A stretch of DNA of 64,000 bases from Candidatus Aenigmatarchaeota archaeon. GTDB taxonomy: Archaea; Aenigmatarchaeota; Aenigmatarchaeia; CG10238-14; SCSR01. The notes beneath the pieces were generated by a model that had not been told where the DNA came from, did not search any database, and saw only the letters and a program-made list of their open reading frames with translations. The position numbers and the translations under genes were made by a program. The stretch lies in assembly GCA_038998335.1 (NCBI GenBank), contig JAVZHQ010000001.1, positions 1-64,000 of the forward strand, in the 5' to 3' direction. This document shows positions 6,001 to 30,391 of this stretch, one piece after another (position 1 is the stretch's first letter; every line of letters starts with the position of its first letter).

Positions 6001-9000
6001 ACTCCAACTCTCTTGGCTTCTACCTCATCTCCAGCTCCAACAACTCTTTAATAAACAACTCAGCCAACTTCGACTCTGATATTGGCTTCTACCTCGAGTA
6101 CAGCTCCAACAACTCTTTAATAAACAACTCAGCCAACTCAAACATTTATGGCTTCTACCTCATCTCCAACTCCAACTACAACTCTTTTATAAACAACATA
6201 GCCAACTCCAACTCTCTTGGCTTCTACCTCCTCTTCAGCTCCAACAACTCTTTAATAAACAACTCAGCCAACTCAAACATTTATGGCTTCTACCTCATCT
6301 CCAACTCCAACTACAACTCTTTAATAAACAACTCAGCCAACTCCAACTCTCTTGGCTTCTACCTCGACTACAGCTCCAACAACTCTTTAATAAACAACTC
6401 AGCCAACTCAAACATTTATGGCTTCTCCCTTCTCTTCAACTCCAACAATACTCTAACTTCCAACCTAATCTCTTCTTCTCTTATATCTCCGGTAAACGGC
6501 TCAAAGATGTGGCACTCAGGTTCAGCAGACAACTTAAACTCTTACTTGAACAGAACCTTTGACTTGACAAGCGTTTCCTCCGCAACCCTTTACTTCTCTC
6601 ACTTTTACGCAACAGAGCCTGAGTACGATGGAGGAAGGCTCGAATTCTTCAACTCTTCTTCAAATGATTGGGAAATCCTATACCCAGAAGAAGGTTATCC
6701 TTATAATTATGTTGAAGCTTTAGAAGGACCTGGATACTCAGGCTCTAGCCAAGGTTGGAAGCTTGCAAAGTTTAACCTAACAAGCTTAACAGGAAAAGTA
6801 ATAACGATAAGGTTTATATTTAAATCTAATTCTTGGCTATTCTTCAGAAACTGGCTTATAGATAACATCTCAATCCCAGAGATAAACTTTTTCGACCCAG
6901 CAGAAGAAATAAACCAATGGAACTACTCAGGCTTCTACTTAACTGAATCCCTTCTTCTCTCGCTATACGGAATCTACCTTCACTACTCTGATAATAACCT
7001 AATAAACGATTCGATAATCTCAACAAACGATTACGGAATCTACTTATCTTCTTCACAAAACAACCTAATCTATAATAATTTATTCAACAACACAATAAAC
7101 TTCTACTTTTCAGGAACAATTTATTCCAACTACTGGAACACTACTAAGCAAGAAGGAAAAAGAATCTACTCTGCTGGAAATGAAATAGGCGGTAATTACT
7201 GGACAAATTTCACTAATAACGGCTATTCTGATACTTGTGCTGATAACAATAAAGATGGATTTTGCGATGAACCTTACACTTTAGCAAGTAATAACATAGA
7301 CTACTTACCATTAAGCAACAAATATCCAGCTTATTGCGATATATTTATTTCTTCCTGCTCAGAATTAACTCAACCAAATACTTATTACTGCCTTAACCAA
7401 AATGTTTCCAGTTCAGATACCTGCTTCAACATAAAAGCTGGTAATATAACCTTAGACTGTCAGGGCTATACTATTAACTATTCTCAATCTTCAACAGGCT
7501 ATGCAATAAACAACTCAGCAGGCTATGATTACATAACAATAAAAAACTGTAATATCGTTCAAGGCAATTTAAGCATTTCATATGCTTATGCCATCTATGC
7601 CTCAGGAATGGTTAATAGCTATATCTATAACAACACTATCTCAACTTCTGGCGACTATGGCTACGGCATATTTCTTTCCTCAAGTTCTAATAATAATATT
7701 CTATCAAACAACACTATCTCAACTTCTGGCAACTATGGCTACGGCATATTTCTTTCCTCAAGTTCTAATAATAATATTCTATCAAACAATAACATTTCAA
7801 CTTTTGGCAACCATGGCCGTGGCATATATCTTTACTCCAGCTCCAACAACACTCTCTCAAACAACAGAATGAACACAAGCTCAACAAACAGCCTTGTTGT
7901 TTACGGAACTTCTTCAAGCCATTTCAACCATAGCATAGATACTACCAACCTAGCAGAAGGCTTACCAATATACTACTGCTTCAACTGCAATAATATCATA
8001 ATGCAAAACCAAGACTATTCAAACACCTACGGCCAGATAATATTTGCCTGGTCTACTAACGTTACTTTAAACAATATCACTATGTCAAACGACGGCTTAA
8101 ACTTCTTTAATGTTACTCACAGCAAAATAATTAATAGTATAATAAACACGAGCAAAGGCTACGGCATATTTCTTTACTCAAGTTCTAATAATAACACTCT
8201 CTCAAACAACACTATCTCAACTTCTGGCAACTATGGCTACGGCATATTTCTTTACTCAAGTTCTAATAATAATATTCTATCAAACAATAACATTTCAACT
8301 TTTGGCAACCATGGTCGTGGCATATTTCTTTACTCAAGTTCTAATAATAATATTCTATCAAACAATAACATTTCAACTTTTGGCAGCTCTGGCCGTGGCA
8401 TATATCTTTACTCCAGCTCCAACAACACTCTCTCAAACAACACTATCTCAACTTCTGGCAACTATGGCTACGGCATATTTCTTTACTCCAGCTCCAACAA
8501 CAACACTCTCTCAAACAACAATGTAATTACATCTTCTTCTACTTCTGCTCACGCTATCCCTATTAACTCTTCCTTTTCCAACAGCATAATAGGAGGCTCT
8601 TACATTGCTAAAGGAGGAGGAACTTCTTACGACTATTACTTACAAGGTACTTCTTCAAACAACAACTTTACTAACACAAACTTTACTGCACCAAGAACTA
8701 TCTACTTCTACGATACTACAAGCTGGTTCAACTACAATAACAGAACAGATTTAGAACTATGGCTAAAAACTTCTGTTTCTTCTTCAGCAACAATAACAAG
8801 AAAGCTAATTTCCTGGGAAAAATCCTTAATGATATGGAACGATTCTTCTTCATCAGCAATAACAGCTTTCTACAACATTTCTGGTCTAAACCCAAACAAA
8901 TACTATTTAATCTACAACAACTCAGTTTTAACTTACACTTTACAATCAGATTCTTCTGGCTCACTAAGCTTTACAATCTACCTATCAGGAGAAAGTGAAA

Positions 9001-10905: not shown

Positions 10906-12897
10906 TCAAATTTCTTCAACTCTTTTCTTCACTTTCTCAAAAATCTCCTCAAGCTTTCTTTCTTTCTTTATTTTTCGCTTTCTCATTACCACAAAAATCA
11001 AGACAATCAAGATTATTAAAATTAAAGGAATTATCAAGAAGTTGAAAAGTCTTGAATAACCTATTAATGTCTTTACCTTATTATAAATCAAGCAAAAGTT
11101 TTGAAATTCTTTTTTCTCAACATATTCTTTCAAAGTATTAATGTTTAAGTTTATTTCTTGAGAAAAGAAAGGAAGGGAAGCATAAAAGCTTAGCCTGAAG
11201 GAGCTTATTTCTTCAACTTCATAACTAACAAAAGCCTCAGCTAAGCTTATTGCTTTTTCATAAAGCGAAATAGAATACTCTAAAATGCTTGCTGCCTTTT
11301 GATAGCTTTCATTTCCATATTCTTCCAAAGCTAGCTTTCTTAAGTATTCTGCATTCTCATAAACTTTAAAAGCATCACCTAAGTTTAAACAATTAAGGTA
11401 AGGAATTTGGTCAGCAATTTTCTTTATTCTTTCTAGTTCTTTTAGCAAAATATCTGCAGCACTCTTCCAATCTTTAGCAATTATAAGCATTATTATTTCC
11501 TCATTACTTTTTACTGAGTTTGAAGCCATAACGCTAAGATAAAAAATTTTATCCTCAACTTCTTTTGGAGCTGTAATCAAAACAAGAAAGTTGTAAGCTT
11601 CTTCCGGGGGGAGCGAAATATTTTCCGGGATAACTCTTATCCACTCCAAAGGAATCCCTTCTATCAAAATTTTAACAAGCTCTTTTTGCGTTCCTAGGTT
11701 TTTAACAGTAGCTATAAGGCCAGATTGATTTCCAGAAATTACAACGATTCTTTTCTCACTAACGTTTAACTCAAGCTTTTTTATCACTTCTGGAGGAGGT
11801 GGTAAAGTTGGACCTATACCTGGACCAGGGGGTCGAGGAAGACAAGAGATAACTCTAAAAATATCGCTAGTCAAAACCTGAATTTCCTTATACTCCAAAA
11901 TAGCTTGGAAAGTATAATAACCAAGAAGGTTAGAAGTGTTAAAACTTGGAAGTCTTACAAGACTTGAAATAACACTTAATGTTTCTTTCGATTCTCTTAC
12001 GACACTTCCGTTAGAATCTAAAATTTTGTAAGTTAGGTTTACTTGAACTTCTTCTTCAGGAAAAATTTTCGTTATGTTTACTCTTCCATAAACCTCATCT
12101 CCTTGGCAAACTTCCTTTTTTTCTTGTGGAACTTCAAGTTTTAGCTCAAAAATAGCGCTTGCGTTAACATTAAGAGTTACCTTAATAGTCTTTACTTGAT
12201 TCTCCGCAGTAACATAAACATAACCAACATAACTTCCGTTCGCATCTTTTGGTATAATAACGCTTAAAGTAAAATTTTCTGGTCTACCTGTAGGCGGTAA
12301 AAAAATGTTTGTTCTAGAAATGTTAAACCAATCCCCCGGGAAGCCAGAAGATTTGTTTATCGTAATATTAGCTCCAAAACAAGGATATAAAAGCCAAATA
12401 TAGATTGTTTCGTTAAAGCTATTTCCTGGTTTAAGAGTTTTTTCTATCTCTAAAGGAGAAACCACTAAGGTTCCTATTCCTTTTTTTATTCTAAAACTTG
12501 TTTCTGCATACTTAAACTCATTGCTATAGCTAAAGTTACTTTTTACAGTATAGATTCCAGGCGAGTCTGAAGCACTTACTGAATAGTTTGTTATAAAATA
12601 TCTAATTTCTGCTCCTCCTATCGAGGCTTGCCATGTTTGACTTTTAATTTCCTGTCCCTCAGGATTAAGAATTTTTGTTGTCAAATTTCCAAAAGCATTA
12701 AGGTTTCCTCTGTTTTCTATTATGTTCGTTATGTTAACAAGTTCAGGTTCGCAATAAGAATCTTTATCAGTGTAAAGTGAAAGAAAAACGTTTTCCTTTG
12801 AAGCTAGAGTAGTATTCATAAAAGTTTCTACGCTAAAGCAACTTTTAACCAAAAACAATAAAAATAAAAGAACAGACAAATACTTCTCAAAACCCAT
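10906..12897 (-). CDS. Membrane-anchored surface protein with several Ig-like (CARDB/NEW3-like) domains, Pro-rich linker, helical region, C-terminal TM
   Basis: N-terminal signal peptide; PRPPGPGIGPTLPPPP linker; hydrophobic LFNFLIIPLILIILIVLIFVVM followed by basic tail. Confidence 0.8.
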   Translation of the reverse strand: MGFEKYLSVLLFLLFLVKSCFSVETFMNTTLASKENVFLSLYTDKDSYCEPELVNITNIIENRGNLNAFGNLTTKILNPEGQEIKSQTWQASIGGAEIRYFITNYSVSASDSPGIYTVKSNFSYSNEFKYAETSFRIKKGIGTLVVSPLEIEKTLKPGNSFNETIYIWLLYPCFGANITINKSSGFPGDWFNISRTNIFLPPTGRPENFTLSVIIPKDANGSYVGYVYVTAENQVKTIKVTLNVNASAIFELKLEVPQEKKEVCQGDEVYGRVNITKIFPEEEVQVNLTYKILDSNGSVVRESKETLSVISSLVRLPSFNTSNLLGYYTFQAILEYKEIQVLTSDIFRVISCLPRPPGPGIGPTLPPPPEVIKKLELNVSEKRIVVISGNQSGLIATVKNLGTQKELVKILIEGIPLEWIRVIPENISLPPEEAYNFLVLITAPKEVEDKIFYLSVMASNSVKSNEEIIMLIIAKDWKSAADILLKELERIKKIADQIPYLNCLNLGDAFKVYENAEYLRKLALEEYGNESYQKAASILEYSISLYEKAISLAEAFVSYEVEEISSFRLSFYASLPFFSQEINLNINTLKEYVEKKEFQNFCLIYNKVKTLIGYSRLFNFLIIPLILIILIVLIFVVMRKRKIKKERKLEEIFEKVKKRVEEI

Positions 12898-12942
12898 AAT
12901 TTAAATTTAAAGTTTCAATAAAATAAAGTATTAAGTGGAAAA

Positions 12943-13530
12943 ATGAAGAGATGGCTCTTGGCTTTAATAGTTTTAATTTTTTTCCTTGGATTAAAGGAAA
13001 CAAAAACTGAGACTTATCCTATAAACTTAACTGTCAGAGGCTATTACTATATAATTATAAGCGATAAACTTGCTGATGGAATTTGGTTTACAAACTTAAC
13101 AGGAGCAAGAGAAAATGTTATGTATCCCCTAGTTGCGGGAACTTTTTTCAATAACGCAACCTTTAACTACAACAAAACAAACCAAAAAACAGAGTATTGG
13201 ATTTATGTCTCCTCTCTGGAAACTGAAGTATGTCATGGAGCAAAATATAACTTATGCTCAAACCTAACTTGTTTGGGCTATAATAATTTTGAAATTTTGA
13301 TTGGTAATGTAAGCTGGAGCGCTTCTCATTATAATGACGTAGAGAACCCTTCAATTTTCGATTCAACAAGAATGGTTTTAGGTTACGATAACCAGAAAAA
13401 AACAAAACCAAACTCTGAAGGTTACATTTACTTAAGATATTGGCTTGATGTTCCTCCGGGTTTTCCTGCTTACAATTACAGCACAATCTATCAAATTCAG
13501 CTTGTCCCCCAAGGTGGAATTTGTGTTTAA
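12943..13530 (+). CDS. Secreted single-domain protein, paralogue of the giant protein's C-terminal domain (candidate fibre subunit)
   Basis: Signal peptide; shares GIxFTN, NNATxNYN, KTEYWI, IGNVSWS, YLRYW and PP motifs with 10170-10658. Confidence 0.8.
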   Translation: MKRWLLALIVLIFFLGLKETKTETYPINLTVRGYYYIIISDKLADGIWFTNLTGARENVMYPLVAGTFFNNATFNYNKTNQKTEYWIYVSSLETEVCHGAKYNLCSNLTCLGYNNFEILIGNVSWSASHYNDVENPSIFDSTRMVLGYDNQKKTKPNSEGYIYLRYWLDVPPGFPAYNYSTIYQIQLVPQGGICV

Positions 13531-14098
13531 AAAAATTTTAGTTTTAATAGTATCGGTATTTTTTTTAAAAGAAGCTTTAGCCACAAGAGGAGTAGGATTA
13601 GCTCCTCTTGAAAATAGCGTTACATTAAGCCCAGGAGAAGAGTTTATTGCTTACTTGCTTTTGTTCAATCCTAGCGATAGAGATACAAACGTGAGTTTAA
13701 AGGTTTATTGTTTGGATTGTTTTCGTGATTTTGAATTTTTTGGATTAAAGGGGAAGGTTAACTTAACTCAAAATTTTGTTGTCCTGCCAAGCGAAATAGA
13801 ATTAGAAAAAAATACTTCGGTTGAAGAAGGAAAGTTTGTTGAATTAAGAGTGAAAGTTCCTTACTTTTTTGAAGAGCAGTTAGTTTTAAACAATAAAACA
13901 ATTCCTTGGCTTGGCTTAGCTTCAAGCTTAGAAGAACTTAACTTTAATATAGTAGCTTCTACTGGTGAGATGATGCAAGTTTCGCTCGTTAGTAGGTTAA
14001 ACGTTAAGGTAAAAAGTAAGGGCTTTGCATGGTTTTTAATCATTCCTGTAATTTTTCTGTTAACTTTGTTTTTAATTAAAAGATTAAGAAGAAGGTAA
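13523..14098 (+). CDS. Exported membrane-anchored protein with CxxC, paralogue of 14084-14782
   Basis: Likely GTG start at 13523 after aaggtgga (track ORF starts at 13445); signal peptide, GVGLAP...LLFNPSD...CLDC, C-terminal TM and basic tail. Confidence 0.75.
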   Translation: MFKKILVLIVSVFFLKEALATRGVGLAPLENSVTLSPGEEFIAYLLLFNPSDRDTNVSLKVYCLDCFRDFEFFGLKGKVNLTQNFVVLPSEIELEKNTSVEEGKFVELRVKVPYFFEEQLVLNNKTIPWLGLASSLEELNFNIVASTGEMMQVSLVSRLNVKVKSKGFAWFLIIPVIFLLTLFLIKRLRRR

Positions 14099-14782
14099 TT
14101 TTTTCCTAAAAATTCTCTTGTAAATTCCTGTTTTCCATATAATTCCCAAAATTATTATCAAGATGGCTATTATTATCAAGATTAAACTACCTGTGGGCAT
14201 ACCTTTTATTTTCAAATCAAGCCAGGAGCCAACTGCTGGAGCAGCCCCTAAAGCACCAAAGCTTGACCAAACAGCAGTTGCTGTTATTCCACCTTTTATT
14301 TCCTTCTCGTCTAGAAGAAGAGTGTAAAATGGAATCGAAAACTCACCATTATAGCTTGGGTTCACCATTCTAACTAAAAAATTTATTTCTTCTGGAGTAG
14401 AGATTACAAATTCTTTTTTAACCCAAAGACTAGGGTGAACTTTAAGGTAAGAATATACAGGAGCTTCCGGGGCAGTGTGAGTAGGAACATAAACTTCTTC
14501 TGGTTCAAAATGGAAAAATTGGGAATAGTCTGTCCTTACTTTACCCAAATACCAACCAAAGAAGTAAATCTTTTCATCACAACTTTCACACTCAAAAGTT
14601 AATCTTGCTTTTATATCATAATCTCCTGGATTATACAAAATTAGACCAATGGAATAAGGATTTTGAATGGTTGCTGCGAGTTCAAGTCTTGGAGGGCCCA
14701 TTCCTATTCCTACACCCGCTAAAACTTTTGAAATAGGGAAAAAGATAAAAAAGGATAATAGGCATAAAATTAATTTTTTCAT
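14084..14782 (-). CDS. Exported membrane-anchored protein with CxxC, paralogue of 13523-14098
   Basis: Signal peptide, GVGIGMGPP...ILYNPGD...CESC, C-terminal TM LILIIIAILIIILGIIW and basic tail. Confidence 0.8.
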   Translation of the reverse strand: MKKLILCLLSFFIFFPISKVLAGVGIGMGPPRLELAATIQNPYSIGLILYNPGDYDIKARLTFECESCDEKIYFFGWYLGKVRTDYSQFFHFEPEEVYVPTHTAPEAPVYSYLKVHPSLWVKKEFVISTPEEINFLVRMVNPSYNGEFSIPFYTLLLDEKEIKGGITATAVWSSFGALGAAPAVGSWLDLKIKGMPTGSLILIIIAILIIILGIIWKTGIYKRIFRKKLPSS

Positions 14783-14833
14783 AGTTCTCTTATAATTCTC
14801 TACATTTCAAGTTATTTAAAAATTTCGTTATTA

Positions 14834-15508
14834 CTAGCAAGAGCAAGAACCACAACTTTGACTAACTTCTACTGCCTTGAAAAGATAGGTTGTGTTATAT
14901 TTACCACTAGGAACATTGTCTGGGTTAGGATCTATCCAGTATCTTAAATAGATTGTTGAACCCGCTGACAAGTTCACGGTTATATGCTGGAATGTATCAG
15001 GTGCAGTAAAGTTTAGAAGAGGTGGGAATTGAGGAAGAGTAGCATTGTTAAAGGTAGAGTTTGACCAACCAACTCCTGTTATGTTTAAGATAGATGTACC
15101 GCATTCTGTCGCGTTAGAGCATTTTAAATGATCGCATGCGCAATGACATATTGTTATGTTTACTTTATTATCTGAAGAGGCAGTTATGTAATAAAGTGTT
15201 GTGTTATAGTAAGGAGGAGTTCCATTATAATTTCTTGTTGCGTTATTCCATGTCGTCATTATAGTTATATCTACCTGGCTTCCTATGGTAGTAGTGTTAG
15301 TAAAAAGTATTCCTTCTGCTAGATATGTTGAGAGGTCTATACCGATAACTTGTTTGATACTAGCGTTCATTTCCTTGGTTATTTCTACCTGGCCAAAAAT
15401 GTTTGGCACGCTTGTTAATATTAAAATTGCTGCAAGTAGAAAAAGGAAAGTTAGAATTATCGAGCTCCCTTTGCTTATTTTGTTATAATTTTTGCTAATC
15501 ATTTCCAT
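14834..15508 (-). CDS. Secreted Cys-rich single-domain protein, paralogue of the giant protein's C-terminal domain (candidate major fibre subunit)
   Basis: Probable ATG at 15508; hydrophobic signal; WNNATRNYN, WSNSTFNNAT, IYLRYW, VPSGKYNTTYLFKAVE compared with VPSGKYNTSIIFKAVE in the giant protein. Confidence 0.8.
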   Translation of the reverse strand: MEMISKNYNKISKGSSIILTFLFLLAAILILTSVPNIFGQVEITKEMNASIKQVIGIDLSTYLAEGILFTNTTTIGSQVDITIMTTWNNATRNYNGTPPYYNTTLYYITASSDNKVNITICHCACDHLKCSNATECGTSILNITGVGWSNSTFNNATLPQFPPLLNFTAPDTFQHITVNLSAGSTIYLRYWIDPNPDNVPSGKYNTTYLFKAVEVSQSCGSCSC

Positions 15509-15594
15509 AAAATAAATTTTGATTTGCTTTATATATAAGCTTTTTTTTGGCAAAGTTAATTTTATTCAAAAACAAAATTTATAAATAGGAAAAC

Positions 15595-18500
15595 ATGCAA
15601 GAAAAAGTCAAAATTTTCCTTTTATTCTTCTTTTCCTCAATTTTTCTACTCATTTTCCTAAAACTTTCCATCTCTTCTTTTTTTCAACAAACCTTTACTC
15701 TTGATTTAGAGCTTAAAATTTTTAACTTTTCCTTAAATTCTTTGAACAATTCAAAGCTATCTGAAGATTTAATTTTTTCTGGAAGTGAAAATCAAACTGT
15801 ATGGATAAGGTTGCCAAAAAATTCAACAGTTTTCTACTCGAACATAAGCTTGGAAGGAATAATGAAACCTTTGTTAACCACAACTGGTTTAAACATTTAT
15901 AAGCTAGAAGTAGGCAATGTTATCCCAACAAACGATTTTGATGAAATCGCAATAGTCGGCCCTAGTTATATCAAACTTTTAAATAATCATGGAAATGAAA
16001 TTTGGAGTTTTAACGTAACTGGTACTGCTGTTTCGTTAGGAAACCTTAGTAGTGATGAAGGAAACGAAATAGTAGTCGGCACAAGCAATGGTTATATTTA
16101 TTTGTTCAATTCCTCAGGTTCTTTAAAGTTTCAAAAATCTATAGGTTTTAAAATAAACGACATAGAAGTAGGCAATGTTATCCCAACAAACGATTTTGAT
16201 GAAATCGCAATAGCAACAGGTAATGGAACTTATGTTTTAACTTCTGTAGGAAATCAGTTATGGATGTATTCTGGTTCTTTTGAAGGAATTGGTATAGGAA
16301 ACCTTAGTAGTGATGAAGGAAACGAAATAGTAGTCGGCACAAGCAATGGTTATATTTATTTGTTCAATTCCTCAGGTTCTTTAAAGTTTCAAAAATCTAT
16401 AGATGTGGAAATAAACGACATAGAAGTAGGCAATGTTATCCCGACAAACGATTTTGATGAAATCGCAATAGCAACAATTAATGGAACTATATTTTTGCTG
16501 GATTTTAACGGAAATATTTTATGGTCTTTTGATACTTTTGGTAGTTCTGTTACAACTATTAGAGTGGCAGAAGTTACATCTGAGTATCCAGGCAATGAAG
16601 TTATAGCAGGAAGTGAAGATAACAAAGTTTATGTTATAAGCGCTTCAGGTCAATTGATATGGAGTTATTTAACTCAAAATATTGTTAAGGGGCTAGGAAT
16701 AGGAAATTTAAGTCAAGACCCAGGAGAAGAAGTAGTTGCAGGAACTATGCTCCCAGCAACTTACACTCTTTACATTTTAAACTTTGAATACTACCCAACA
16801 AACGTTAGTCTTGATATAGGAAACGATGGTGAAATAGAATGGTATTATTCAGGAAAGTTTAGAGGTAAAGCTTCGGTTTCTAATAATTCTGCCTTTCAAA
16901 AGTATCTATCAAACTGCGAGCCAGATTCGACAGGAAATTGTGACATTCCTTTAGTTTTTCACTCAGATTTTGCAGGTGATTTGAACATAACTTCAGTTTA
17001 CTTAGAGTTCGAATACAATTTATCTGGAATTATTTTCTCTTCTACTATAAACGCTTGGTCAAGAGTTGTTAACATAAGAGCTAACGAAAGTGTGGGAAAC
17101 CAAACGATAAACATAAGCTTTACAAGAAACCCTGCTTTGGATTTAAGAATAAACTATATAAAAGTTAACGATTCAGCAACAAGATGCGATTTTAACAATA
17201 TTACTTACAATGTTACAACTATTGGAGGAAAAAAATATTGCAACATTTCTTCCCTTAACTTTTTGATTCCTTCCTCTGGCTCTTTACCTTCTGCTATTCT
17301 TTGGGATGATAGCATGAACGTAGGAGTGCCAATAATAATTAACGAGTCAGAAGGCAGAGTAATAGAAGCATTTTGGAAGAAGAATATAACTATATGGAAC
17401 ACAACCCCTCAAATCTTTTACAACATAACAGCGAACACAAGCATAGACGAAAGTGTTGTTATTTCTCAACCAAAGCTTAAAGTTTTTTGGAATAACAATT
17501 GGTACGATATTACTCCTTCTCAGTCAAGTAATAACTGCAATTCAACTAACCCAACTTACCAAAAAATAACAATAGGAAGCGATGAATTTTTTGTTTGCAA
17601 ACAAGACACAAACTTTAACGGAATAGAAGATCTTTTTGTTTGGAAGCAGCCTCACTCTTCCATAACTTTATACGAGGTTAGCGGCTCAGGTAATAGGCCC
17701 CCAATTCTTTCAAACATTACAGTTTTACCAAGCAAAGCTATTTGGGGAAGTGAGTTTAACATAAGCTTAAACGTTAGCGATGTAGAAAACGATAATGTTA
17801 CTTTACAACTATGGGTAAACATAAAAAGCTTGAATGTTTCTCAGCTTATAGAGGAGAAAAACTTTACAGGAAATCAGTCTATTACCTTTACTTTTTCCAC
17901 TAACAAAAGCTGGGTTGGAATAAACGAATTCTGGTTTAACTACACAGATTTCAACAGCTCTTCTGGAATACAACTTCACGACTGGATTATTTCTTCTTTT
18001 TATCCTGGACCAAACGTAACCAAGAGAAACGCTTCTGTAATTTACATAGAAGGAAATGATTCAAGGGTTAATAGAAGTGAAGCAACTTTGCTTTCTGTTC
18101 AGCTAATAGACAATTTTGATTCCTCACCAATTCCTAACGCAAACTGTAGCTTTTGGGTCTGGCTGAATCAAACTCACAACTCAAGTTACTTTACTAAAAG
18201 CGATGAAAATGGTTTTTGCAACTACAGCTTTACTCCAAATTCTTCCTATCAGCCAGGACAAAGAGAATGGAAGGCAGGAGTTTATTCTGATTCCTATTAT
18301 GAAACAAACATTTCTTCAGGGTTTTTCGTGAAAATTTACGGCAAGCTTAACATTAGGTTGAATTCACTTTCAAACTTTACTCGAGGTATTTCTCTACTTA
18401 ACGCTTCGCTTTTTGATGAATTTAATCAACCTGTTAAGCTTTCAGGTTATACTTGTGAATGGTTTATAAATGATACTCTTGAAAACACAACTCAAACAGA

Positions 18501-21500
18501 CTCTTACGGCTTTTGCTTCCATCCTTGGAAAACAGATTGCTCTAACGAACTAGGTTATTATAACATTAACGTTACGCTTTCAGGAAATGTTAACGAATTC
18601 TATTATCTTAACCAAACAAGCCAAGAAATTCTAAGAGCTTTAAAGGACAATTTAAATATAACAATAATTTCACCTTTGCCTAACTCAATTTATCATGTTG
18701 GTGAAACAATTCTTTTGAACTCGACTATAAACGATTCTTGTGGTCTAGCTACTTATAACTATAGCGTGATTTGGTTTGGGGATGGTAAAACAGATCCAGG
18801 TTTAAGCACTTGCAGTATGAGCGTTGAAGGAGAAAATTCATCTTATAACGTGGCAAGCAACTGCATGCCAGGCATATTTTTAATAAAAGCAAACGCCTCT
18901 GGTGAACTTTACAACTCAGACCAAAAAAACGTTAGCGTATGGATTTATGGTTGGAGTCAGGTTAACTTTACCTTTCCTTTAAATGAAAGTAAGGTAAACA
19001 AGGCAGAAAGAGAAATGCTAGACTTAGTTTGTCAAGTAAAAGACCCAAGTTCACCTGTTCAAGAGCTTGAGAATTATCCTGTTTACTTCTGGGACTTAAC
19101 GTCAGGAGAAGAGTTTTTAGCTCAAGTTAAAACAAACCTCACTGGCTATGCAAAATATTCTTGGAACATAACTAACATAAGCGATTTAGCTCAAGTTAAA
19201 TGTAACATAAGTAATACAAACATAACCTTTTATAGGTATTATAATGCTTCTGTAAAAGAAAGTTACATAACTTTCAGTATAATAGAAAACGATACAAAAG
19301 CTCCAACAATAGAAAATTTAAAAGCAGAACCTGCAATTCTTGGTGAAAGCGTTAAAATAGAAGCTAATGTTTCAGATAAGTATGGGGTAGATAAAGTTTG
19401 GGTAAATGTTAGCTTTCCAAATTCTTCTTTTGCAATTTATTATTTGCAAAACAAAACTTCTCAAATTACCAACACAACTTGGGAAGTTACAATTCCAGGA
19501 TTAAACTTAGGAGATTACGATTTTGTACTTTTTGCTAACGATACTTCTAATAATATCGCTAACGCAACAAGCTGGTTTGAGGTTTATCAACCAATTCAAA
19601 TGTATTTGAACGCAAGCTTTCCGATAGACTTTACTTTCTTTAGGCCAGGAAAAGAAATAATAATCCATAGGTTTTCTTATCCTCCAGGAAATTACAATTT
19701 TACTCTGCATAAAAGAACTTATGACTGGTCGATAAAAATTGGTGAAAACTGGATAAAAATCTTCAATTTCAACACAACAAGAACTTCTGAGCTTCAGTTT
19801 AATAGCAGCGATGCAAACCTAACAAACCCGATAAACATTTCCTTGATTAGCGTAAGCCTAATCGACTTACCAAAGCCTGAGAAGTATAAGATATCTGCTT
19901 TCGAAATAAAAACAAACGCTTCCTACTCAAACTTGCTAATAACTTTCAACTATTCAAAAGATTTGAACGAAGGAAGAATTTGGTTTGAGCCAGGAATCAA
20001 AATTTTCAAGTGTGCTAATTGGAGCTACCCAAATTGCTATTCAGGTTGGGTTGAAGTAAGTAGCAATTTAGACCTAACAAATCATCTAATCTCTACACTT
20101 CAAACTTCACCCTCAGTTTATACTGCTGCAGAAATTGAGGTATGTGGAAACGGAAAATGTGGATACGGAGAATCTTGTGTTAATTGCCCAGAAGACTGTG
20201 GTTCTTGTGGTCCAACCTATACTCCTCCTGCAGGAGGAGGTGGAGGAGCTGGTGCTCCTTCATTGCCACCTGAAACTACTCCAACAGAAGAAATTAAGTT
20301 TAGCATAAGGACAAACCTATCTGAAGCTCAAATAAACATAAACGAAACAAAGTATTTTGCTCTGTGGATTTTGAACGAAATGAGCTCAAGACAAAACTTT
20401 ACGGTTTCGATTTCTGGTTCTATCACTGATTTGGTTAAAATAGAAAGAGATTTCATCTCAGTTAACCCAAAAACTGAAGGTATGTTACTAATAGAAGCTT
20501 ACGCTCCTCCAAGAACCGAGTTAGGGACTTATACAGGCACAATATACGTGACAACAGCAAGAAAAACTCAAAACTTACCAGTAACTTTAACTGTTTCTCT
20601 TAAAGGTTTGATTGAATTAGACATAATGGCAGAAGCTTTAACAAAACAAGTTAATCCTGATAGGGTAGCAAGGTTTAGGATTGTTTTGTATAATTTAGGA
20701 GTAAAGAAAAACTTTGACGCAAACTTTACTTTTATCGTTCAAAATCCTGAAACAAAAGAAATAATCTTTTCAACTAGCAAGATTAAATCTCTTCAATCAT
20801 CTTATGAATCCTTCATCGAGGAAATTTATATTCCTCAAAACATTTCCTTAGGCCAATACCTTTTTGTTGTAGAAGCTGAGTATGACGGGAAAAAGAAAAG
20901 TTCTTCTGATTTGTTTGAAGTAGTTCAACCTTTCTGGACGCCTGCAAGAATTCAACTAGCAACAATTCTTTTAGTTGCTTTATTCTCGGTATTTTCATTC
21001 TTCTACGCAAGAAGCTACTATAAAAAATGGAGGTTAAAAACAGCACGTTACATAGCTCCTGTTAAGCCAGGAAAATTGCCAAGAGGTGAGCTTTGGCTAG
21101 GAAAAGTTGCTGAGATCAGGGCAAAGGCAACTTTTGCTATGGATGATTTAACAACTCACGTTTTGGTTGCAGGAGCTACAGGTTCTGGAAAATCTGTTAC
21201 TGCAAGCTTATTTGTCGAAGAACTACTTGAGAAAAAGATCCCTGTAGTAGTTTTTGACCCTACAGCTCAGTGGACTGGATTTGTTAGACCATGCAAAGAC
21301 CCAAAAATCTTAAAGTATTACAGAGCTTTTGGTCTTTCTCCTGAGGAAGCAAAACCATTCAAAGGACTAATATTTGAAGTTACAACCCCAAAAGTTGAAA
21401 TAGATTTCAAAAAGCTAATGAACCCAGGAGAAATTACAATATTCACTTTAGACAAACTTAAACCTGGACAATATGATGAAGCAGTAACTCACATAATAGA

Positions 21501-22149
21501 TACAATCTTTGCTCAAGGATGGGAAGAGTCCTCAAGCTTAAGATTAGTAATAGTTTTTGATGAAGTTCACAGGTTACTTGAAAAATATGGAGGAAAAGGA
21601 GGTTATGTTGCTTTAGAAAGGGCTTGCAGAGAATTTAGAAAGTGGGGAATAGGATTAATAATGGTTTCTCAAGTTTTAAGCGATTTCAAGGAAGCAATAA
21701 AGGGTAATGTTTTAACAGAAATTCAAATGCACACTAAAAGCTTAGGAGATTTAGCAAGAGTTGAGAAGAAGTATGGTTTAGAGTATGCTAAAAGGGTTGC
21801 AAGACTTGAGGTAGGAGTTGGCCTAATACAAAACCCAAAGTATAACGAGGGAATTCCTTGGTTCATTTCTTTTAGGCCGCCATTACACATGCCTCATAAG
21901 ATTCCAGAAAAAGAGCTTAAGATGTACAAAGACTTTAGCAAAGCAATAGAGGAAATAGAAAGAGAGCTTGAAATAATAGAAAAGGCAGGGATGGATATAT
22001 TTGAATTCAAAACAGAATTAAAATTAGCTAAGGATAAGCTCAAACAAGGTAGCTTTAGGATGGCTGAGATTTACATAACTTCCTTAAGAAAGAAGCTTGT
22101 CGATTTTTGGATAGGCAAGTATGGAGAGGGTAAGTATAGAAGAAAATAA
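15595..22149 (+). CDS. 2184-aa surface protein: repeat beta-propeller, Ig-like stalk, Cys-rich motif, TM helix and cytoplasmic HerA/FtsK-superfamily P-loop ATPase
   Basis: N-terminal hydrophobic segment; FG-GAP-like repeats (GNLSSDEGNEIVVG); CGNGKCGYGESCVNCPEDCG; TM ~20950-21009; Walker A GATGSGKS 21172-21195; VVVFDP; Walker B LVIVFDEVH ~21544-21570; REFRKWGIGLIMVSQ. Confidence 0.9.
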   Translation: MQEKVKIFLLFFFSSIFLLIFLKLSISSFFQQTFTLDLELKIFNFSLNSLNNSKLSEDLIFSGSENQTVWIRLPKNSTVFYSNISLEGIMKPLLTTTGLNIYKLEVGNVIPTNDFDEIAIVGPSYIKLLNNHGNEIWSFNVTGTAVSLGNLSSDEGNEIVVGTSNGYIYLFNSSGSLKFQKSIGFKINDIEVGNVIPTNDFDEIAIATGNGTYVLTSVGNQLWMYSGSFEGIGIGNLSSDEGNEIVVGTSNGYIYLFNSSGSLKFQKSIDVEINDIEVGNVIPTNDFDEIAIATINGTIFLLDFNGNILWSFDTFGSSVTTIRVAEVTSEYPGNEVIAGSEDNKVYVISASGQLIWSYLTQNIVKGLGIGNLSQDPGEEVVAGTMLPATYTLYILNFEYYPTNVSLDIGNDGEIEWYYSGKFRGKASVSNNSAFQKYLSNCEPDSTGNCDIPLVFHSDFAGDLNITSVYLEFEYNLSGIIFSSTINAWSRVVNIRANESVGNQTINISFTRNPALDLRINYIKVNDSATRCDFNNITYNVTTIGGKKYCNISSLNFLIPSSGSLPSAILWDDSMNVGVPIIINESEGRVIEAFWKKNITIWNTTPQIFYNITANTSIDESVVISQPKLKVFWNNNWYDITPSQSSNNCNSTNPTYQKITIGSDEFFVCKQDTNFNGIEDLFVWKQPHSSITLYEVSGSGNRPPILSNITVLPSKAIWGSEFNISLNVSDVENDNVTLQLWVNIKSLNVSQLIEEKNFTGNQSITFTFSTNKSWVGINEFWFNYTDFNSSSGIQLHDWIISSFYPGPNVTKRNASVIYIEGNDSRVNRSEATLLSVQLIDNFDSSPIPNANCSFWVWLNQTHNSSYFTKSDENGFCNYSFTPNSSYQPGQREWKAGVYSDSYYETNISSGFFVKIYGKLNIRLNSLSNFTRGISLLNASLFDEFNQPVKLSGYTCEWFINDTLENTTQTDSYGFCFHPWKTDCSNELGYYNINVTLSGNVNEFYYLNQTSQEILRALKDNLNITIISPLPNSIYHVGETILLNSTINDSCGLATYNYSVIWFGDGKTDPGLSTCSMSVEGENSSYNVASNCMPGIFLIKANASGELYNSDQKNVSVWIYGWSQVNFTFPLNESKVNKAEREMLDLVCQVKDPSSPVQELENYPVYFWDLTSGEEFLAQVKTNLTGYAKYSWNITNISDLAQVKCNISNTNITFYRYYNASVKESYITFSIIENDTKAPTIENLKAEPAILGESVKIEANVSDKYGVDKVWVNVSFPNSSFAIYYLQNKTSQITNTTWEVTIPGLNLGDYDFVLFANDTSNNIANATSWFEVYQPIQMYLNASFPIDFTFFRPGKEIIIHRFSYPPGNYNFTLHKRTYDWSIKIGENWIKIFNFNTTRTSELQFNSSDANLTNPINISLISVSLIDLPKPEKYKISAFEIKTNASYSNLLITFNYSKDLNEGRIWFEPGIKIFKCANWSYPNCYSGWVEVSSNLDLTNHLISTLQTSPSVYTAAEIEVCGNGKCGYGESCVNCPEDCGSCGPTYTPPAGGGGGAGAPSLPPETTPTEEIKFSIRTNLSEAQININETKYFALWILNEMSSRQNFTVSISGSITDLVKIERDFISVNPKTEGMLLIEAYAPPRTELGTYTGTIYVTTARKTQNLPVTLTVSLKGLIELDIMAEALTKQVNPDRVARFRIVLYNLGVKKNFDANFTFIVQNPETKEIIFSTSKIKSLQSSYESFIEEIYIPQNISLGQYLFVVEAEYDGKKKSSSDLFEVVQPFWTPARIQLATILLVALFSVFSFFYARSYYKKWRLKTARYIAPVKPGKLPRGELWLGKVAEIRAKATFAMDDLTTHVLVAGATGSGKSVTASLFVEELLEKKIPVVVFDPTAQWTGFVRPCKDPKILKYYRAFGLSPEEAKPFKGLIFEVTTPKVEIDFKKLMNPGEITIFTLDKLKPGQYDEAVTHIIDTIFAQGWEESSSLRLVIVFDEVHRLLEKYGGKGGYVALERACREFRKWGIGLIMVSQVLSDFKEAIKGNVLTEIQMHTKSLGDLARVEKKYGLEYAKRVARLEVGVGLIQNPKYNEGIPWFISFRPPLHMPHKIPEKELKMYKDFSKAIEEIERELEIIEKAGMDIFEFKTELKLAKDKLKQGSFRMAEIYITSLRKKLVDFWIGKYGEGKYRRK
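15905..16476 (+). repeat. 258-bp-period internal duplication in the propeller region
   Basis: 16037-16218 is nearly identical to 16295-16476; tagaagtaggcaatgttatccc...gaaatcgcaatag occurs at 15905, 16163 and 16421. Confidence 0.9.
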
Positions 22150-23032
22150 CGAGAAATTAAAAAAATTGAAAGAGAAGTACGGAGTAATAGAGGAAATTCC
22201 TGAAAGGGAAATAGAAGAGGCTAAACCTAAGAAAAGTCCAAAAGTAGAAGTAGAAGAAATAACTTTACCTGAGCTTCTTTTAAGGGTTGAGAAGATCGAA
22301 GGCAAAATAGAAGTTTTAACAGATTTCAAGAAAAGTATTGACGAAAGGGTCGAAGTGATATCAGAAGGCTTAGGCGAGCTAAGGTCTACACTTCTAGAAA
22401 AAGAAAAGCTTTTGACAAAAATGGAAAAAGATGTACAAATGGTTTTGGATTCTATTTCTGAGCTTGATTTGGACAAAATAAAGAAGATGGTTTCGAAAAG
22501 AGATGTAGAAATAGAAGAGATAAAAGCTAACTTAGAAAAGCTTGAAGAAATGATAAAAGAAGTTCAAAAACAGTTGAAAGATTTCTTTGATGCTATGGAG
22601 AAAATAAAAAATATTGAAAGCTTGATACTTGCTTCCGAAAAGCTTGACAAGAAAATGGATAAAATAGAAGAAGCAAAAATCTACATAACAAAAACTGCTT
22701 CAAAAGTAGAGTCGATATTTACCGAGCTAAGTGAAAAAGCAAGCCTAATAGAAAAACAGAAGAATGACATAGAGAAAATAAAAGATTTGAGCATGGAAAT
22801 AGTTAGAACCTTGGATGAGCTAAGCCTAAAGCTTACAAAGTTTGTCAGGAAAGAAGAGCTTGAAGAGCTTAAAAGTGAGGTAGAGAAAAAGCTGGGAGGA
22901 AAGATTGAAATTAAAAAAGAAGTAAAACCAAAAGAAGAGGCTAAACCAAAAGAAGAGAAAAAGCCTGAAGAAAAAGAAGAGGATATTTGGGTAAGCTTAA
23001 GAGAAAAATGGAAAAGGCTTGCTTCTTATTAG
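22121..23032 (+). CDS. Long coiled-coil protein, function unknown
   Basis: E/K/L/I-rich heptad pattern over about 220 aa; overlaps the upstream gene end. Confidence 0.75.
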   Translation: MERVSIEENNEKLKKLKEKYGVIEEIPEREIEEAKPKKSPKVEVEEITLPELLLRVEKIEGKIEVLTDFKKSIDERVEVISEGLGELRSTLLEKEKLLTKMEKDVQMVLDSISELDLDKIKKMVSKRDVEIEEIKANLEKLEEMIKEVQKQLKDFFDAMEKIKNIESLILASEKLDKKMDKIEEAKIYITKTASKVESIFTELSEKASLIEKQKNDIEKIKDLSMEIVRTLDELSLKLTKFVRKEELEELKSEVEKKLGGKIEIKKEVKPKEEAKPKEEKKPEEKEEDIWVSLREKWKRLASY

Positions 23033-23069
23033 AAAAAAGAATTAAAGATAGAAAAACAAATTAATAATC

Positions 23070-23843
23070 ATGACAAGGATAATAGGAATAATTTCTGGTA
23101 AAGGAGGAGTAGGAAAAACAACGCTTACGACAAACTTATCCTATGCGATAGCTCAGCTTGGTCAAGAAGTTATAGCTATAGATGCCAACATAACTACTCC
23201 TCACCTAGGCTTAGCCTTAGGTTATCAGTTTGTTCCAAAAGGTTTACAAAATGTTTTAAGAGAAGGAGTAAGTTTGGAAGATGTAATTTATTCTCATCCT
23301 TTTGGTTTTAAGTTCATTCCTTCAGTTTTAAACGTAAATGAATTAAAAGATGTCGATGTAGGCAAGTTACCAGAGGTAACTTTAAGTTTAATAGGAAAAG
23401 CTGACTTTGTTTTTTTAGATTGTGCTCCTGGCTTAGGAAGAGAAGCGACTTCAGCTATTCTTTCTGGCTCAGAATTTTTGCTCGTAACAAACCCAGAAAT
23501 TTCTAGTGTTATAGATGCCTTAAGAACTGCCTCTATAGTAAAAAATTCCAACAAGGAAATTATAGGAGTTGTTGTCAACAGAGTAAGAAATAAGCCTTAT
23601 GAGCTTAAAAAGGAGGAAATAGAAGAAATTCTTGAGCTTCCTGTTTTAGCAGAAATTCCGGAAGATAGAAACGTACAAAAAAGCATTTCTCTTAAGCTTC
23701 CTTTGCTTAGCGTTTATCCAGACTCTCCTGCATCTGTTGAGATCAAAAGGCTAGCTTATTTGCTATGTGGCTTTCCGTTCAAGGCAAGAAAACCAAGGCT
23801 TAATTTAATTCAAAGGCTTGTGAGATGGATGATAAAAGAATAA
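23070..23843 (+). CDS. minD: MinD/ParA-family ATPase (archaeal MinD type)
   Basis: Deviant Walker A SGKGGVGKTT, DCAPG, C-terminal amphipathic LIQRLVRWM. Confidence 0.85.
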   Translation: MTRIIGIISGKGGVGKTTLTTNLSYAIAQLGQEVIAIDANITTPHLGLALGYQFVPKGLQNVLREGVSLEDVIYSHPFGFKFIPSVLNVNELKDVDVGKLPEVTLSLIGKADFVFLDCAPGLGREATSAILSGSEFLLVTNPEISSVIDALRTASIVKNSNKEIIGVVVNRVRNKPYELKKEEIEEILELPVLAEIPEDRNVQKSISLKLPLLSVYPDSPASVEIKRLAYLLCGFPFKARKPRLNLIQRLVRWMIKE

Positions 23844-29187: not shown

Positions 29188-30391
29188 AAAGCTAATTCCA
29201 GAGGTTAACATTGGTTTGGTTGGACATGTGGCCCATGGAAAAACAACTTTAACCGAAGCTTTGACCGGAAAATTAACCTTAACTCATTCTGAGGAATTGA
29301 AAAGAGGAATAACGATTCGCTTAGGTTATGCTGACGCAACTTTTTATAAGTGTACCAAATGCTCAAGATATTCTACAAGCCAAAAATGTCCTTACTGCTT
29401 TTCTGATTGTGAAATTTTAAGAACTGTTAGTTTTATTGATGCTCCTGGTCATGAGACTTTAATGGCTACAGTTTTAACAGCAACCTCTCTTATGGACGGA
29501 GCTTTGCTTGTTATAGCTGCAAACGAGAAATGCCCTCAACCCCAAACAAGAGAGCATTTAGCTGCCTTGGAAGTTGCAGGAATAAAAAATGTTGTTATTG
29601 TACAAAACAAAATCGACTTAGTTTCTAAGGAAAGGGCTTTGGAAAATTACCAAGAAATTAAAAATTTTGTTAAAAATACAATACTAGAGGATGCGCCAAT
29701 CATTCCTGCTTCTGCGCAACAAAGAGCAAATATAGATTTAGTTATTAAAGCTATAGAAGAAAGAATTCCAACTCCAAAAAGGGAAGAAGAGAAAGACTTG
29801 AAAATGCTCGTTGCTAGAAGCTTTGACGTTAACAAACCAGGAACAGAAATAGAAAAACTGGTAGGAGGAGTTTTAGGTGGCTCTATAATTCAAGGGAAAC
29901 TTAAGCTGGGAGACGAGATAGAAATAAAACCAGGAATAAAGTTAGGAGGAAAGTACAAAAGTTTAATTACAAAGGTAGAAGGTTTGCAAAAAGCGAGAAG
30001 GAATTTGAAAGAAGCTGGTCCAGGAGGTTTAGTAGGAGTATTAACAACTCTTGACCCTTGCCTAACAAAATCTGACTCTTTAGTAGGAAATGTGGTTGGT
30101 TTTCCCGAAAGGCTTGAGGAAGCAAAGGATAGTTTGGAAATCCAAGTAAAACTTTTTGAAAGGTTAGTTGGAGCTAAGGAGCTTAAGGAAATATCTCCAA
30201 TCAAGTTGAAAGAAGAGCTTTTGATAAACGTAGGAACTGCAAGAACTCTTGGAACAGTTACGCAAGTAAAAAAAGATATAATTGAGCTTAAGCTTAAAAT
30301 TCCTGTCTATGCAGAAAAGAACGAAAGAGTAGTTATTTCAAGACAGTTTTCTGGAAGATGGAGATTAATAGGTTATGGGACTATAATTTAG
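29168..30391 (+). CDS. eif2g: Translation initiation factor 2 gamma subunit
   Basis: NIGLVGHVAHGKTT, HSEELKRGITIRLGY, Zn ribbon, DAPGHE, QNKID, RSFDVNKPG, WRLIGYG. Confidence 0.97.
   Translation: MEKVKDEKLIPEVNIGLVGHVAHGKTTLTEALTGKLTLTHSEELKRGITIRLGYADATFYKCTKCSRYSTSQKCPYCFSDCEILRTVSFIDAPGHETLMATVLTATSLMDGALLVIAANEKCPQPQTREHLAALEVAGIKNVVIVQNKIDLVSKERALENYQEIKNFVKNTILEDAPIIPASAQQRANIDLVIKAIEERIPTPKREEEKDLKMLVARSFDVNKPGTEIEKLVGGVLGGSIIQGKLKLGDEIEIKPGIKLGGKYKSLITKVEGLQKARRNLKEAGPGGLVGVLTTLDPCLTKSDSLVGNVVGFPERLEEAKDSLEIQVKLFERLVGAKELKEISPIKLKEELLINVGTARTLGTVTQVKKDIIELKLKIPVYAEKNERVVISRQFSGRWRLIGYGTII

Follow-up and report, generated by a model that had tools for sequence, protein, structure and literature searches.

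We analysed a 64,000-nucleotide stretch of DNA from a tiny hot-spring archaeon of the Candidatus Aenigmatarchaeota (GenBank assembly GCA_038998335.1, contig JAVZHQ010000001.1, positions 1 to 64,000; hereafter the window), in which one gene encodes a giant surface protein joined across the membrane to an ATPase. The gene lies on the plus strand at 15595..22149, opens with an ATG start and, according to the open reading frame (ORF) list and its translation, encodes 2,184 amino acids (aa). This is the same single ORF that was given in the original prediction, which had been made from the letters of the DNA. The product is a SPEARE-type surface protein with a C-terminal HerA-like ATPase, and we hold both its identity and its topology with high confidence. 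Directly behind it, also on the plus strand, a gene for a 303-aa coiled-coil protein (22121..23032) overlaps the last 29 nucleotides (nt) of the ATPase gene.

The topology of the 2,184-aa protein was deduced from several of its features. A hydropathy scan (19-aa window, threshold 1.6) returned only two hydrophobic segments, residues 2-31 and 1782-1807. The first (peak 2.46, K4 and K6 preceding) corresponds to an N-terminal signal peptide or anchor at residues 1-30 (15595..15684, +). The second is the single transmembrane (TM) helix (20938..21015, +), which also appears as a long helix at residues 14-47 of the AlphaFold2 (AF2) model of a 415-aa piece spanning the TM helix and the ATPase. The K/R-rich stretch ARSYYKKWRLKTARY follows the TM helix directly, in agreement with the positive-inside rule. 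Between residues 31 and 1778 there are 93 N-X-S/T sequons, compared with 31.7 +/- 4.7 expected from 500 composition-preserving shuffles, and between residues 1804 and 2184 there are none (0.38 expected). Cysteines number 24 in the ectodomain and 2 in the cytoplasmic part. Together, the N-terminal leader, the distribution of sequons and cysteines, and the K/R stretch assign the first ~1,750 aa to the cell exterior and the last ~380 aa to the cytoplasm. Hydropathy, sequons, the K/R stretch and Pfam thus all agree with the predicted arrangement of an outer ectodomain, one TM helix and an inner ATPase of the HerA/FtsK superfamily.

Towards its N-terminus the ectodomain contains a beta-propeller region (residues ~100-400; 15892..16794, +), in which PF25292 scored 54.7 bits against a cut-off of 26.8 in a Pfam scan, alongside PF13570 and BamB-type matches. 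Two copies of a 258-nt (86-aa) tandem unit, 96% identical, lie in this region at 16037-16230 and 16295-16488, and represent either a recent blade duplication or a collapsed or expanded repeat. A third, partial copy is found at 15886-15955. Residues ~450-1500 are without any Pfam match at E <= 0.1. Of the outer domains originally proposed, the propeller is confirmed, while the Ig-like stalk is borne out for the last ~240 ectodomain residues and not for residues ~450-1500. The Cys-rich motif (residues 1517-1539) and the Gly/Pro linker (1540-1566) were placed by motif position at 20143..20292 (+), and the motif itself, CGNGxCExGE..NCPxDC, was found in the consensus of 36 relatives. Next to the membrane, the coverage profile and profile and Pfam searches delineate two beta-sandwich (E-set / NEW3 / CARDB-like) domains at 20293..20928 (+). 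No protease or toxin-like domain was detected by Pfam in the ectodomain.

Pfam (DUF87, HerA_C), AF2 and Foldseek assign the cytoplasmic part (21019..22146, +) as a HerA-clade P-loop ATPase with a C-terminal three-helix bundle. Its motifs, all on the plus strand, are Walker A (GATGSGKS, residues 1860-1867; 21172-21195), Walker B (VIVFDEVH, residues 1985-1992; 21547-21570), and the blocks FRKWGIG (residues 2014-2020) and MVSQV (residues 2023-2027), which together span 21634-21675. Every motif named at the outset, namely the two Walker motifs, RK(W)GIG..VSQ, the Cys-rich motif and the Gly/Pro linker, could thus be located.

As chimeric assembly or read-through between two genes could in principle mimic a fusion of this kind, contigs from the Logan collection were mapped on 19000-23100, drawn from four runs labelled hot-spring metagenomes in three studies. 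A 9,743-nt contig of run X1 covers the whole of this interval with 33 differences. Contigs of X3 and X4 (2,930 and 2,752 nt), from a separate study, cover 19000-21452 with 117 differences and bridge the ectodomain-TM-ATPase junction. Nine full-length, collinear orthologs from other assemblies (41-76% identity) align end to end with the 2,184-aa protein, and the ATPase fusion is present in 134 genomes of the phylum, mostly as long open frames without internal stops. Because independent contigs bridge the junction and the fusion recurs in phylum genomes, a chimera, for which a coverage check at the TM/ATPase junction had been advised, is excluded, and we assign an artefact of either kind practically no probability.

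The motor and its putative coiled-coil partner

Sequence profiles and the predicted fold place the motor in the HerA clade, rather than with VirB4/TraG or ResIII. Within the window protein, Pfam DUF87/HerA scored 44.9 bits (cut-off 23.2) and HerA_C 27.3 bits (cut-off 22). ResIII reached 27.2 bits on the TM-plus-ATPase piece, where it covers the P-loop/helicase part only and is outscored by DUF87 and HerA_C; matches other than HerA_C and ResIII were limited to ~50 residues round the P-loop. Across 38 members of the family, DUF87 was matched in all 38 and HerA_C in 37, followed by TrwB_AAD_bind (22), ResIII (21), FtsK_SpoIIIE (19), AAA_10 (18), and T4SS-DNA_transf (13). All 38 sequences retain the Walker A Lys, the Walker B Asp-Glu, R243, R246, and Q257 unchanged. 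When the 38-member profile was compared with PDB sequences, HerA was matched at 6e-12 to 1e-8, YjgR at 8e-7, DotL at 2e-3, FtsK at 0.04, and TrwB at 0.13.

The AF2 model of the TM-plus-ATPase piece (mean local confidence score, pLDDT, 92.9) consists of a long helix, two short strands, a RecA-like core and the C-terminal three-helix bundle. A Foldseek comparison with the PDB ranked HerA structures first (4d2i at 1.8e-13, SIR2-HerA, HerA-NurA), with the TcpA coupling protein, the STIV2 B204 packaging ATPase and FtsK next at ~1e-9 to 1e-8.

The likeness to HerA (4d2i, 9x1l), the best match by profile and by fold, extends over the RecA-like core, Walker A and B, the R..RK.G.G....SQ blocks and the C-terminal helical bundle. 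However, the window ATPase is not HerA proper. It is membrane-anchored and lacks the HAS-barrel: no more than ~53 aa, with two short strands, separate the TM helix from Walker A. NurA was not found beside the window gene, the sole NurA match of the genome being ~240 kb away (C1:264398-265210), and a separate soluble DUF87 protein is encoded in the same genome.

Some other members of the FtsK-HerA superfamily are also bound to the membrane. CedD and CedB of the crenarchaeal Ced DNA import system resemble the window protein in carrying a TM helix N-terminal to the motor, as described in the available text of PMC11823120. Although CedD is the top NCBIfam match of the window protein, the match scored 46.1 bits against a cut-off of 600 (NF053655) and covers the P-loop only, and CedD has no large ectodomain. 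We found no polytopic membrane protein among the recurrent neighbour families; no search by family was made for CedA, CedA1 and CedA2. FtsK/SpoIIIE, TrwB/VirD4 and EssC-type translocases have a ring motor that is tethered to the membrane through N-terminal helices. They differ from the window protein, which has one TM helix (vs 2-4), an enormous extracellular part, and matches to these proteins at the level of the P-loop only. For FtsK/SpoIIIE this match scored 21.7 bits against a cut-off of 24, and for TrwB and T4SS-DNA_transf the matches span ~50 P-loop residues, with no stretch passing alone. EssC acts on helical proteins encoded adjacent to it, a possible analogy to the coiled-coil partner of the window gene.

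To search for the same architecture and neighbourhood in relatives, as the original prediction had advised, we surveyed 105 loci (26 from genomes, 79 from metagenomes), 102 of which have at least 400 nt downstream of the ATPase gene. The architecture proved widespread, and a coiled-coil homolog was encoded downstream on the same strand in 93 of the 102 loci. It was directly adjacent in 76 loci and 660-3,978 nt further away in 17, and it was not found downstream in the remaining 9. The two genes overlap in 35 of the 76 adjacent loci.

The coiled-coil proteins range in length from 130 to 847 aa. As none of the 93 contains a hydrophobic segment and they are poor in sequons (0.25 per 100 aa), they are cytoplasmic. 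Pfam returned generic coiled-coil matches only, with no cytoskeletal family match, and a weak match to WXG100 in 1 of 19 proteins (E 0.002) is not meaningful. Two motifs recur among the 93: an N-terminal motif of KYGV.KEIP type (40 proteins) and an E.IGELR block (71 proteins). Fusion of the coiled-coil protein to the ATPase was seen in none of 250 family proteins. A predicted complex of the ATPase domain (piece residues 36-415) with the coiled-coil protein scored 0.00, which we count neither for nor against binding. The available excerpts of the SPEARE papers discussed below do not mention the coiled-coil partner.

The SPEARE family and its conservation

SPEARE proteins were reported from Nanohaloarchaeota, and given this name, by Hamm 2019 (PMC6642349) as proteins of up to 8,553 aa, mainly extracytoplasmic and with a TM helix toward the C-terminus. 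As far as the excerpts of that paper go, the most conserved region is an intracellular P-loop part labelled type III restriction enzyme-like, every SPEARE ectodomain has a laminin-G domain, production of the proteins is proven by proteomics, and similar sequences occur in Woesearchaeota, Aenigmarchaeota, Micrarchaeota, and Altiarchaeales. The excerpted text of Reva 2023 (PMC10266531) re-examines SPEARE, finds no endonuclease, and proposes effector secretion into the host. Its 9,409-aa example comprises a signal peptide, an Ig-like domain, propellers, ~75 Ig-like domains and a TM helix, and in the cytosol a VirB4/TraG-like ATPase bearing a coiled-coil tip; a second ATPase gene follows downstream. 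In a later publication from this group, cytoplasmic bridges and trans-cellular methylation in a nanohaloarchaeon-host pair are attributed by the authors to a giant protein (PMC11001535, excerpts).

The window protein shares with these published descriptions the leader, the very long adhesin-like glycoprotein ectodomain, the propellers, the Ig-like domains, the one TM helix toward the C-terminus, and the P-loop ATPase with its helical tip. It is thus an Aenigmatarchaeota member of the SPEARE / giant membrane-anchored DPANN family. The two copies in this genome make up 4% of it, the same share that the excerpts of Hamm 2019 (PMC6642349) give for Nanopetramus. The gene downstream of the ATPase encodes a coiled-coil protein, and not a second ATPase as in the example of Reva 2023. 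The restriction-enzyme label of Hamm 2019 is explained by the Pfam ResIII match, which recurs in the family beneath stronger matches of HerA type and from which the final two letters of the name SPEARE derive. The architecture is therefore already published, and the window gene adds a member rather than a new machine. The original prediction had held that such ATPases are not normally fused to adhesin-sized ectodomains, which is wrong for DPANN.

With the 415-aa TM-plus-ATPase piece as the family query, 134 of 301 sampled genomes of the same phylum matched at E <= 1e-30; the figures are 48 of 98 for high-quality genomes and 69 of 151 for genera. The piece also matched 1,357 cluster representatives at E <= 1e-3, of which 363 reached E <= 1e-30. 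The best 150 of these representatives are 353 to 7,878 aa long, with the ATPase at or near the C-terminus. Matches were likewise found in 502 proteins of 1,201-3,822 aa (7,999 scored candidates) and in 51 proteins of 3,823-5,000 aa. By name, the sources include Aenigmatarchaeota, Nanoarchaeota, Woesearchaeota, Micrarchaeota, Ca. Nanosalina, Altarchaeum, and Altiarchaeota. A strict Walker A was present in 197 of 246 family proteins, 183 of which have a hydrophobic segment within 120 aa upstream of it (median spacing 55 aa). The relative from Ca. Nanosalina sp. (P0282, 4,079 aa) is 39% identical across 95% of the ATPase piece (E 4.7e-90), and the spacing between its TM helix (3682-3710) and Walker A (3765) is as in the window protein.

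Conservation is concentrated near the membrane. The coverage profile delimits a family-wide core at residues ~1500-2168 of the window protein, and the two beta-sandwich domains at 20293..20928 are the part of the ectodomain that is conserved across the family. The conserved core accordingly consists of two beta-sandwich domains, the TM helix and the ATPase. Members that are only 580-730 aa long have a leader, an ectodomain of ~250 aa, the TM helix and the ATPase. Relative to the nine orthologs, the ATPase of the window protein is 76-87% identical; for its ectodomain regions the range is 31-63% once the closest ortholog is set aside. The motor is far more constrained than the fast-evolving arm.

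The membrane-proximal domains were compared with known folds. Profile A4 (membrane-proximal 240 aa) matched the N-terminal domains of GH123, an Ig-like domain of an S8 peptidase, MG domains of TEP1, and EfmWxLIP1, a WxL-interacting protein (WxLIP), at E 1e-4 to 1e-2. Pfam matches in the proximal domains of 36 members were to FixG_C (10), WxLIP_PGBD (9), WxLIP_HBD (5), and NEW3 (4), those to WxLIP at E <= 0.01; the WxLIP match of the window protein itself fell below the cut-off (16.6 vs 27.3 bits). EfmWxLIP1 (PDB 9i1y, 9i25) was matched over both domains by the family profile A1 (5e-4) and by A4 (8e-3), although other E-set domains match the proximal profile as well or better. Genome-wide searches with Pfam WxL, WxLIP_PGBD and WxLIP_HBD gave nothing in the window and one match of E 0.08 inside the 11,409-aa paralog described below. 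In the window neighbours no WxL domain was detected; for the neighbouring 195-aa protein, the nearest named cluster in a language-model atlas was WxL-domain (score 0.83), which is a lead only. WxLIPs (PF06030, PF11797) of Gram-positive surface complexes share the layout of the outer core of the family, with a leader, two beta-sandwich domains and a TM helix at the C-terminus, but they carry no ATPase.

The second SPEARE-type gene of this genome lies outside the window, at G000:C1:573238-607467 (+), and encodes a paralog of 11,409 aa in one open frame. The paralog has a leader, 508 sequons and a TM helix near residue 11,020, and its ATPase shares 51% identity with that of the window protein. 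It has its own gene for a coiled-coil protein (566 aa) immediately downstream (607468-609168) and, ~1.8 kb upstream, a gene of MinD/ParA type. The window copy and the paralog fall in separate clades of a FastTree tree built from 286 ATPase tails. The two genes together account for ~4% of the 1.01-Mb genome.

Still longer open frames ending in the ATPase occur in metagenome assemblies of the phylum (e.g. G095:C3, G150:C1, G061:C2, G140:C7, and G024:C1). These predicted frames span 14,526, 14,236, 13,519, 13,434, and 13,242 aa, the 13,242-aa one being interrupted by a single internal stop. If real, these products of 13-14.5 kaa would exceed the largest archaeal proteins in the literature, where a 9,409-aa protein is termed the largest in cultivated archaea (PMC10266531, excerpts) and halomucin is given ~9,000 aa (as quoted in the excerpts of PMC6642349). 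One 3.4-kb contig (L006) in a bin titled Heimdallarchaeota encodes an ATPase 66% identical to that of the window protein; as it is this close to an Aenigmatarchaeota protein, mis-binning is likely.

Proposed mechanism and competing explanations

DPANN archaea are attached to other cells and have genomes of ~1 Mb, yet 4% of the DNA here is spent on two SPEARE-type genes. The SPEARE family is the leading candidate for a host-contact machine that possibly opens a route for the exchange of material. We consider an ATP-driven SPEARE-family machine at the contact site to be the best overall explanation of our data, at somewhat better than an even chance; that it works by translocation is more tentative, and falls a little short of one.

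[quoted passage not shown] Homology to FtsK, TrwB and CedD suggests that the ATPases may assemble into a ring whose N-terminal face is held against the membrane by ~50 residues, so that several ectodomains would be bundled above one ring motor. Judging by gene order, the motor may act together with the soluble coiled-coil protein encoded directly downstream. The variable ectodomain would then grip its target at the site of contact with a host or neighbouring cell, and the conserved ring would either move a polymer (protein effector or DNA) through the membrane of the archaeon itself or power the opening of a bridge. Movement of macromolecules at a host-contact site, one of the two roles put forward in the original prediction, is the same hypothetical role as in the literature.

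Several observations weigh against this explanation, or against the family assignment that it builds on. The conserved neighbourhood contains no relaxase, nuclease, DNA-binding or channel protein, and six helices, each crossing the membrane once, would offer little from which to build a pore. The search for markers of a type IV secretion system (T4SS) covered two families in the 90%-complete genome: the VirB4 N-terminal domain (PF03135, CagE_TrbE_VirB) was not found, and VirB6/TrbL (PF04610) had no match at E <= 0.01. In the ATPase domain, net charge (median +3 across the 38 members, compared with +1.8 per 100 aa for the genome) is unremarkable; as it is not distinctive, we dropped it as a pointer to a DNA substrate. 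Identity with the named SPEARE proteins (NAR1_1133, AOV94740.1 and SVXNc_0300) is inferred from published descriptions and the Nanosalina relative. Finally, unlike the published SPEARE ectodomains, the window protein has no Laminin_G family among its 23 Pfam matches at E <= 0.1. We take laminin-G, however, as descriptive rather than defining for SPEARE, since it is the cytoplasmic part that sets the bounds of the family.

A single TM helix per subunit and the lack of a channel partner in the conserved neighbourhood would fit a ring that does not translocate. The ATPase would then do no more than oligomerise and anchor the adhesin arms, perhaps with a mechanical link from the arms to a coiled-coil scaffold inside the cell, and ATP would regulate adhesion, clustering or turnover. 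A long soluble coiled-coil protein as near-universal partner is consistent with such a hub, as is the presence of MinD/ParA positioning-type ATPases close by in 20 of 105 loci. However, the N-terminal face of the ring is tied to the membrane by a linker of ~50 aa, as in membrane translocases, and the coiled-coil protein lacks a cytoskeletal family match. Moreover, the characterised members of the FtsK-HerA superfamily are polymer pumps. We regard a non-translocating hub as unlikely, but as an alternative of real weight.

Improbable in our view is a true T4SS in which a VirB4/TraG-like ATPase injects effectors into the host, as proposed in the excerpts of Reva 2023 (PMC10266531). It draws on the weak P-loop-level matches to TrwB_AAD_bind, AAA_10 and T4SS-DNA_transf (22, 18, and 13 of 38 members, respectively) and on a second short ATPase-bearing ORF, found in tandem in 5 of 105 loci. 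Against these stand the profiles and folds of HerA type, which clearly win, the two T4SS marker families not found in the genome, and a downstream gene that encodes a coiled-coil protein and not an ATPase.

The other role originally predicted for the motor was to assemble or export the neighbouring fibre, here represented by surface proteins of 195 aa, 239 aa, and 3,551 aa (a beta-helix protein). The cluster of neighbouring genes is indeed conserved round the subfamily of ~2,200-aa proteins, and the domain of the 195-aa protein (p195) recurs at the C-terminus of the beta-helix protein. Weak leads also connect the proximal domains to WxL-interacting proteins and p195 to the WxL cluster. Nevertheless, the neighbours have N-terminal hydrophobic leaders of their own in their translations, and the cluster occurs in only 8-21 of 105 loci (21 with a protein of the 663-aa type and 8 with one of p195 type) and is absent at the 11,409-aa paralog. 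The window has no WxL or WxLIP match, and an hhalign comparison of the neighbouring 217- and 232-aa proteins with the proximal domains gave a probability of 8%, leaving homology between them unsupported. The export role thus did not hold up, and we judge it even less probable than a T4SS.

We rejected as very improbable a role as an intracellular enzyme that restricts or otherwise degrades host DNA after import (Hamm 2019, PMC6642349, excerpts): the 27.2-bit ResIII match that speaks for it is limited to the P-loop/helicase part and outscored by DUF87 and HerA_C, the Pfam matches of the ATPase piece include no nuclease family, and the excerpts of Reva 2023 (PMC10266531) report no endonuclease.

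For the contact-site machine, our analysis adds four elements to the published picture: a motor that profiles and fold assign to the HerA clade, rather than a restriction enzyme or a typical VirB4; much stronger conservation in this motor than in the arm; a soluble coiled-coil partner; and an outer core of only two beta-sandwich domains. It also adds an accessory surface-protein cluster that accompanies the ~2,200-aa subfamily, and an 11,409-aa paralog in the same 1-Mb genome. The motor, the coiled-coil partner and the two-domain outer core are concrete constructs for biochemistry.

These elements could also be combined into a model of the ancestral unit of the family, which we consider improbable. 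A WxLIP-like two-domain anchor would have been fused to a HerA-type ring ATPase and paired with a coiled-coil protein, and the arms (up to ~14,500 aa) would be lineage-specific additions. The ring might use ATP, along with the coiled-coil protein, to thread a polymer or pull on the host contact site, and the outer base might, more speculatively, dock p195-domain adhesins, including the 3,551-aa beta-helix protein. If true, the WxLIP-like/HerA unit would represent an archaeal trans-envelope machine not recognised before and different from T4SS, the type VII secretion system (T7SS), and Ced.

Neighbouring genes

Comparison with relatives and BLAST identified an accessory block of five surface-protein genes at 10906..15553 (no single strand assigned), next to the giant gene. 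The block encodes a 663-aa protein (MG2/NEW3-like, with a C-terminal TM helix), 195- and 239-aa proteins that share a paralogous secreted domain, and 217- and 232-aa proteins with a leader and a C-terminal TM helix. Four relatives (L003, L012, L015, and L019) have the five genes in the same relative order but in the opposite orientation, and a fifth (L017) has four of them before its contig ends. The block is thus a ~4.65-kb inversion adjoining the giant gene; no convincing inverted repeats flank it. In these five relatives the cluster of the ~2,200-aa subfamily comprises genes for the 239-, 232-, 217-, 195-, and 663-aa surface proteins, and after it come the giant gene, the coiled-coil gene, and a gene for a large secreted protein ending in a p195-type domain. 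Proteins with a p195-type C-terminal domain are encoded just downstream of the coiled-coil gene in L012, L015, L016, L017, and L019. In the window, the corresponding giant secreted protein is encoded upstream of the giant gene, unlike in the relatives (3..10658, +). This is the beta-helix / laminin-G protein of 3,551 aa (Pfam Beta_helix, NosD, Laminin_G_3), which is truncated at the contig start and whose last ~165 aa form a p195/p239 domain of 38-39% identity.

The p195 domains form a family of secreted domains of ~165 aa, encoded in the window at 12943-13530 (+), 14834-15553 (-), and 10140-10655 (+), and elsewhere at C1:186670-187266 and C1:108330-108980. They have invariant NNAT.NY and Y.R.W blocks and conserved cysteines, and either stand alone or end the beta-helix protein. 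The domain had no Pfam match, and a p195-family profile returned no match to PDB sequences at E <= 10; look-alike clusters in the atlas are mostly from Chloroflexota. The AF2 model obtained for the 195-aa protein from a 12-row alignment could not be used because of its low quality (pLDDT 55.9), and a comparison of the 232-aa protein with PDB sequences gave nothing meaningful.

Other genes accompany the family less regularly. A CARDB-like protein is encoded between the ATPase and coiled-coil genes in 11 of the 105 loci. In 13 of the 105, a winged-helix-like protein of ~86 aa is encoded upstream of the giant gene and overlapping it (e.g. L007:4345-4605); the window lacks it. Downstream of the coiled-coil gene, the window has a MinD/ParA-type ATPase gene at 23070..23843 (+; Pfam CbiA, ParA), a loose neighbour.

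Two proteins of the window recall type IV pilins at their N-termini. The 239-aa protein (14834-15553, -) begins with ..KISKG followed by a hydrophobic run of ~20 residues, which by eye resembles the class III (type IV pilin-like) signal peptides of archaea; the leader of its 195-aa paralog is ordinary. The other, a 146-aa protein (30388-30828, -), gave a weak match to the archaeal type IV pilin N-terminal family (PF07790, E 0.0035), and its gene sits between the eIF2-gamma gene and a 124-aa ORF.

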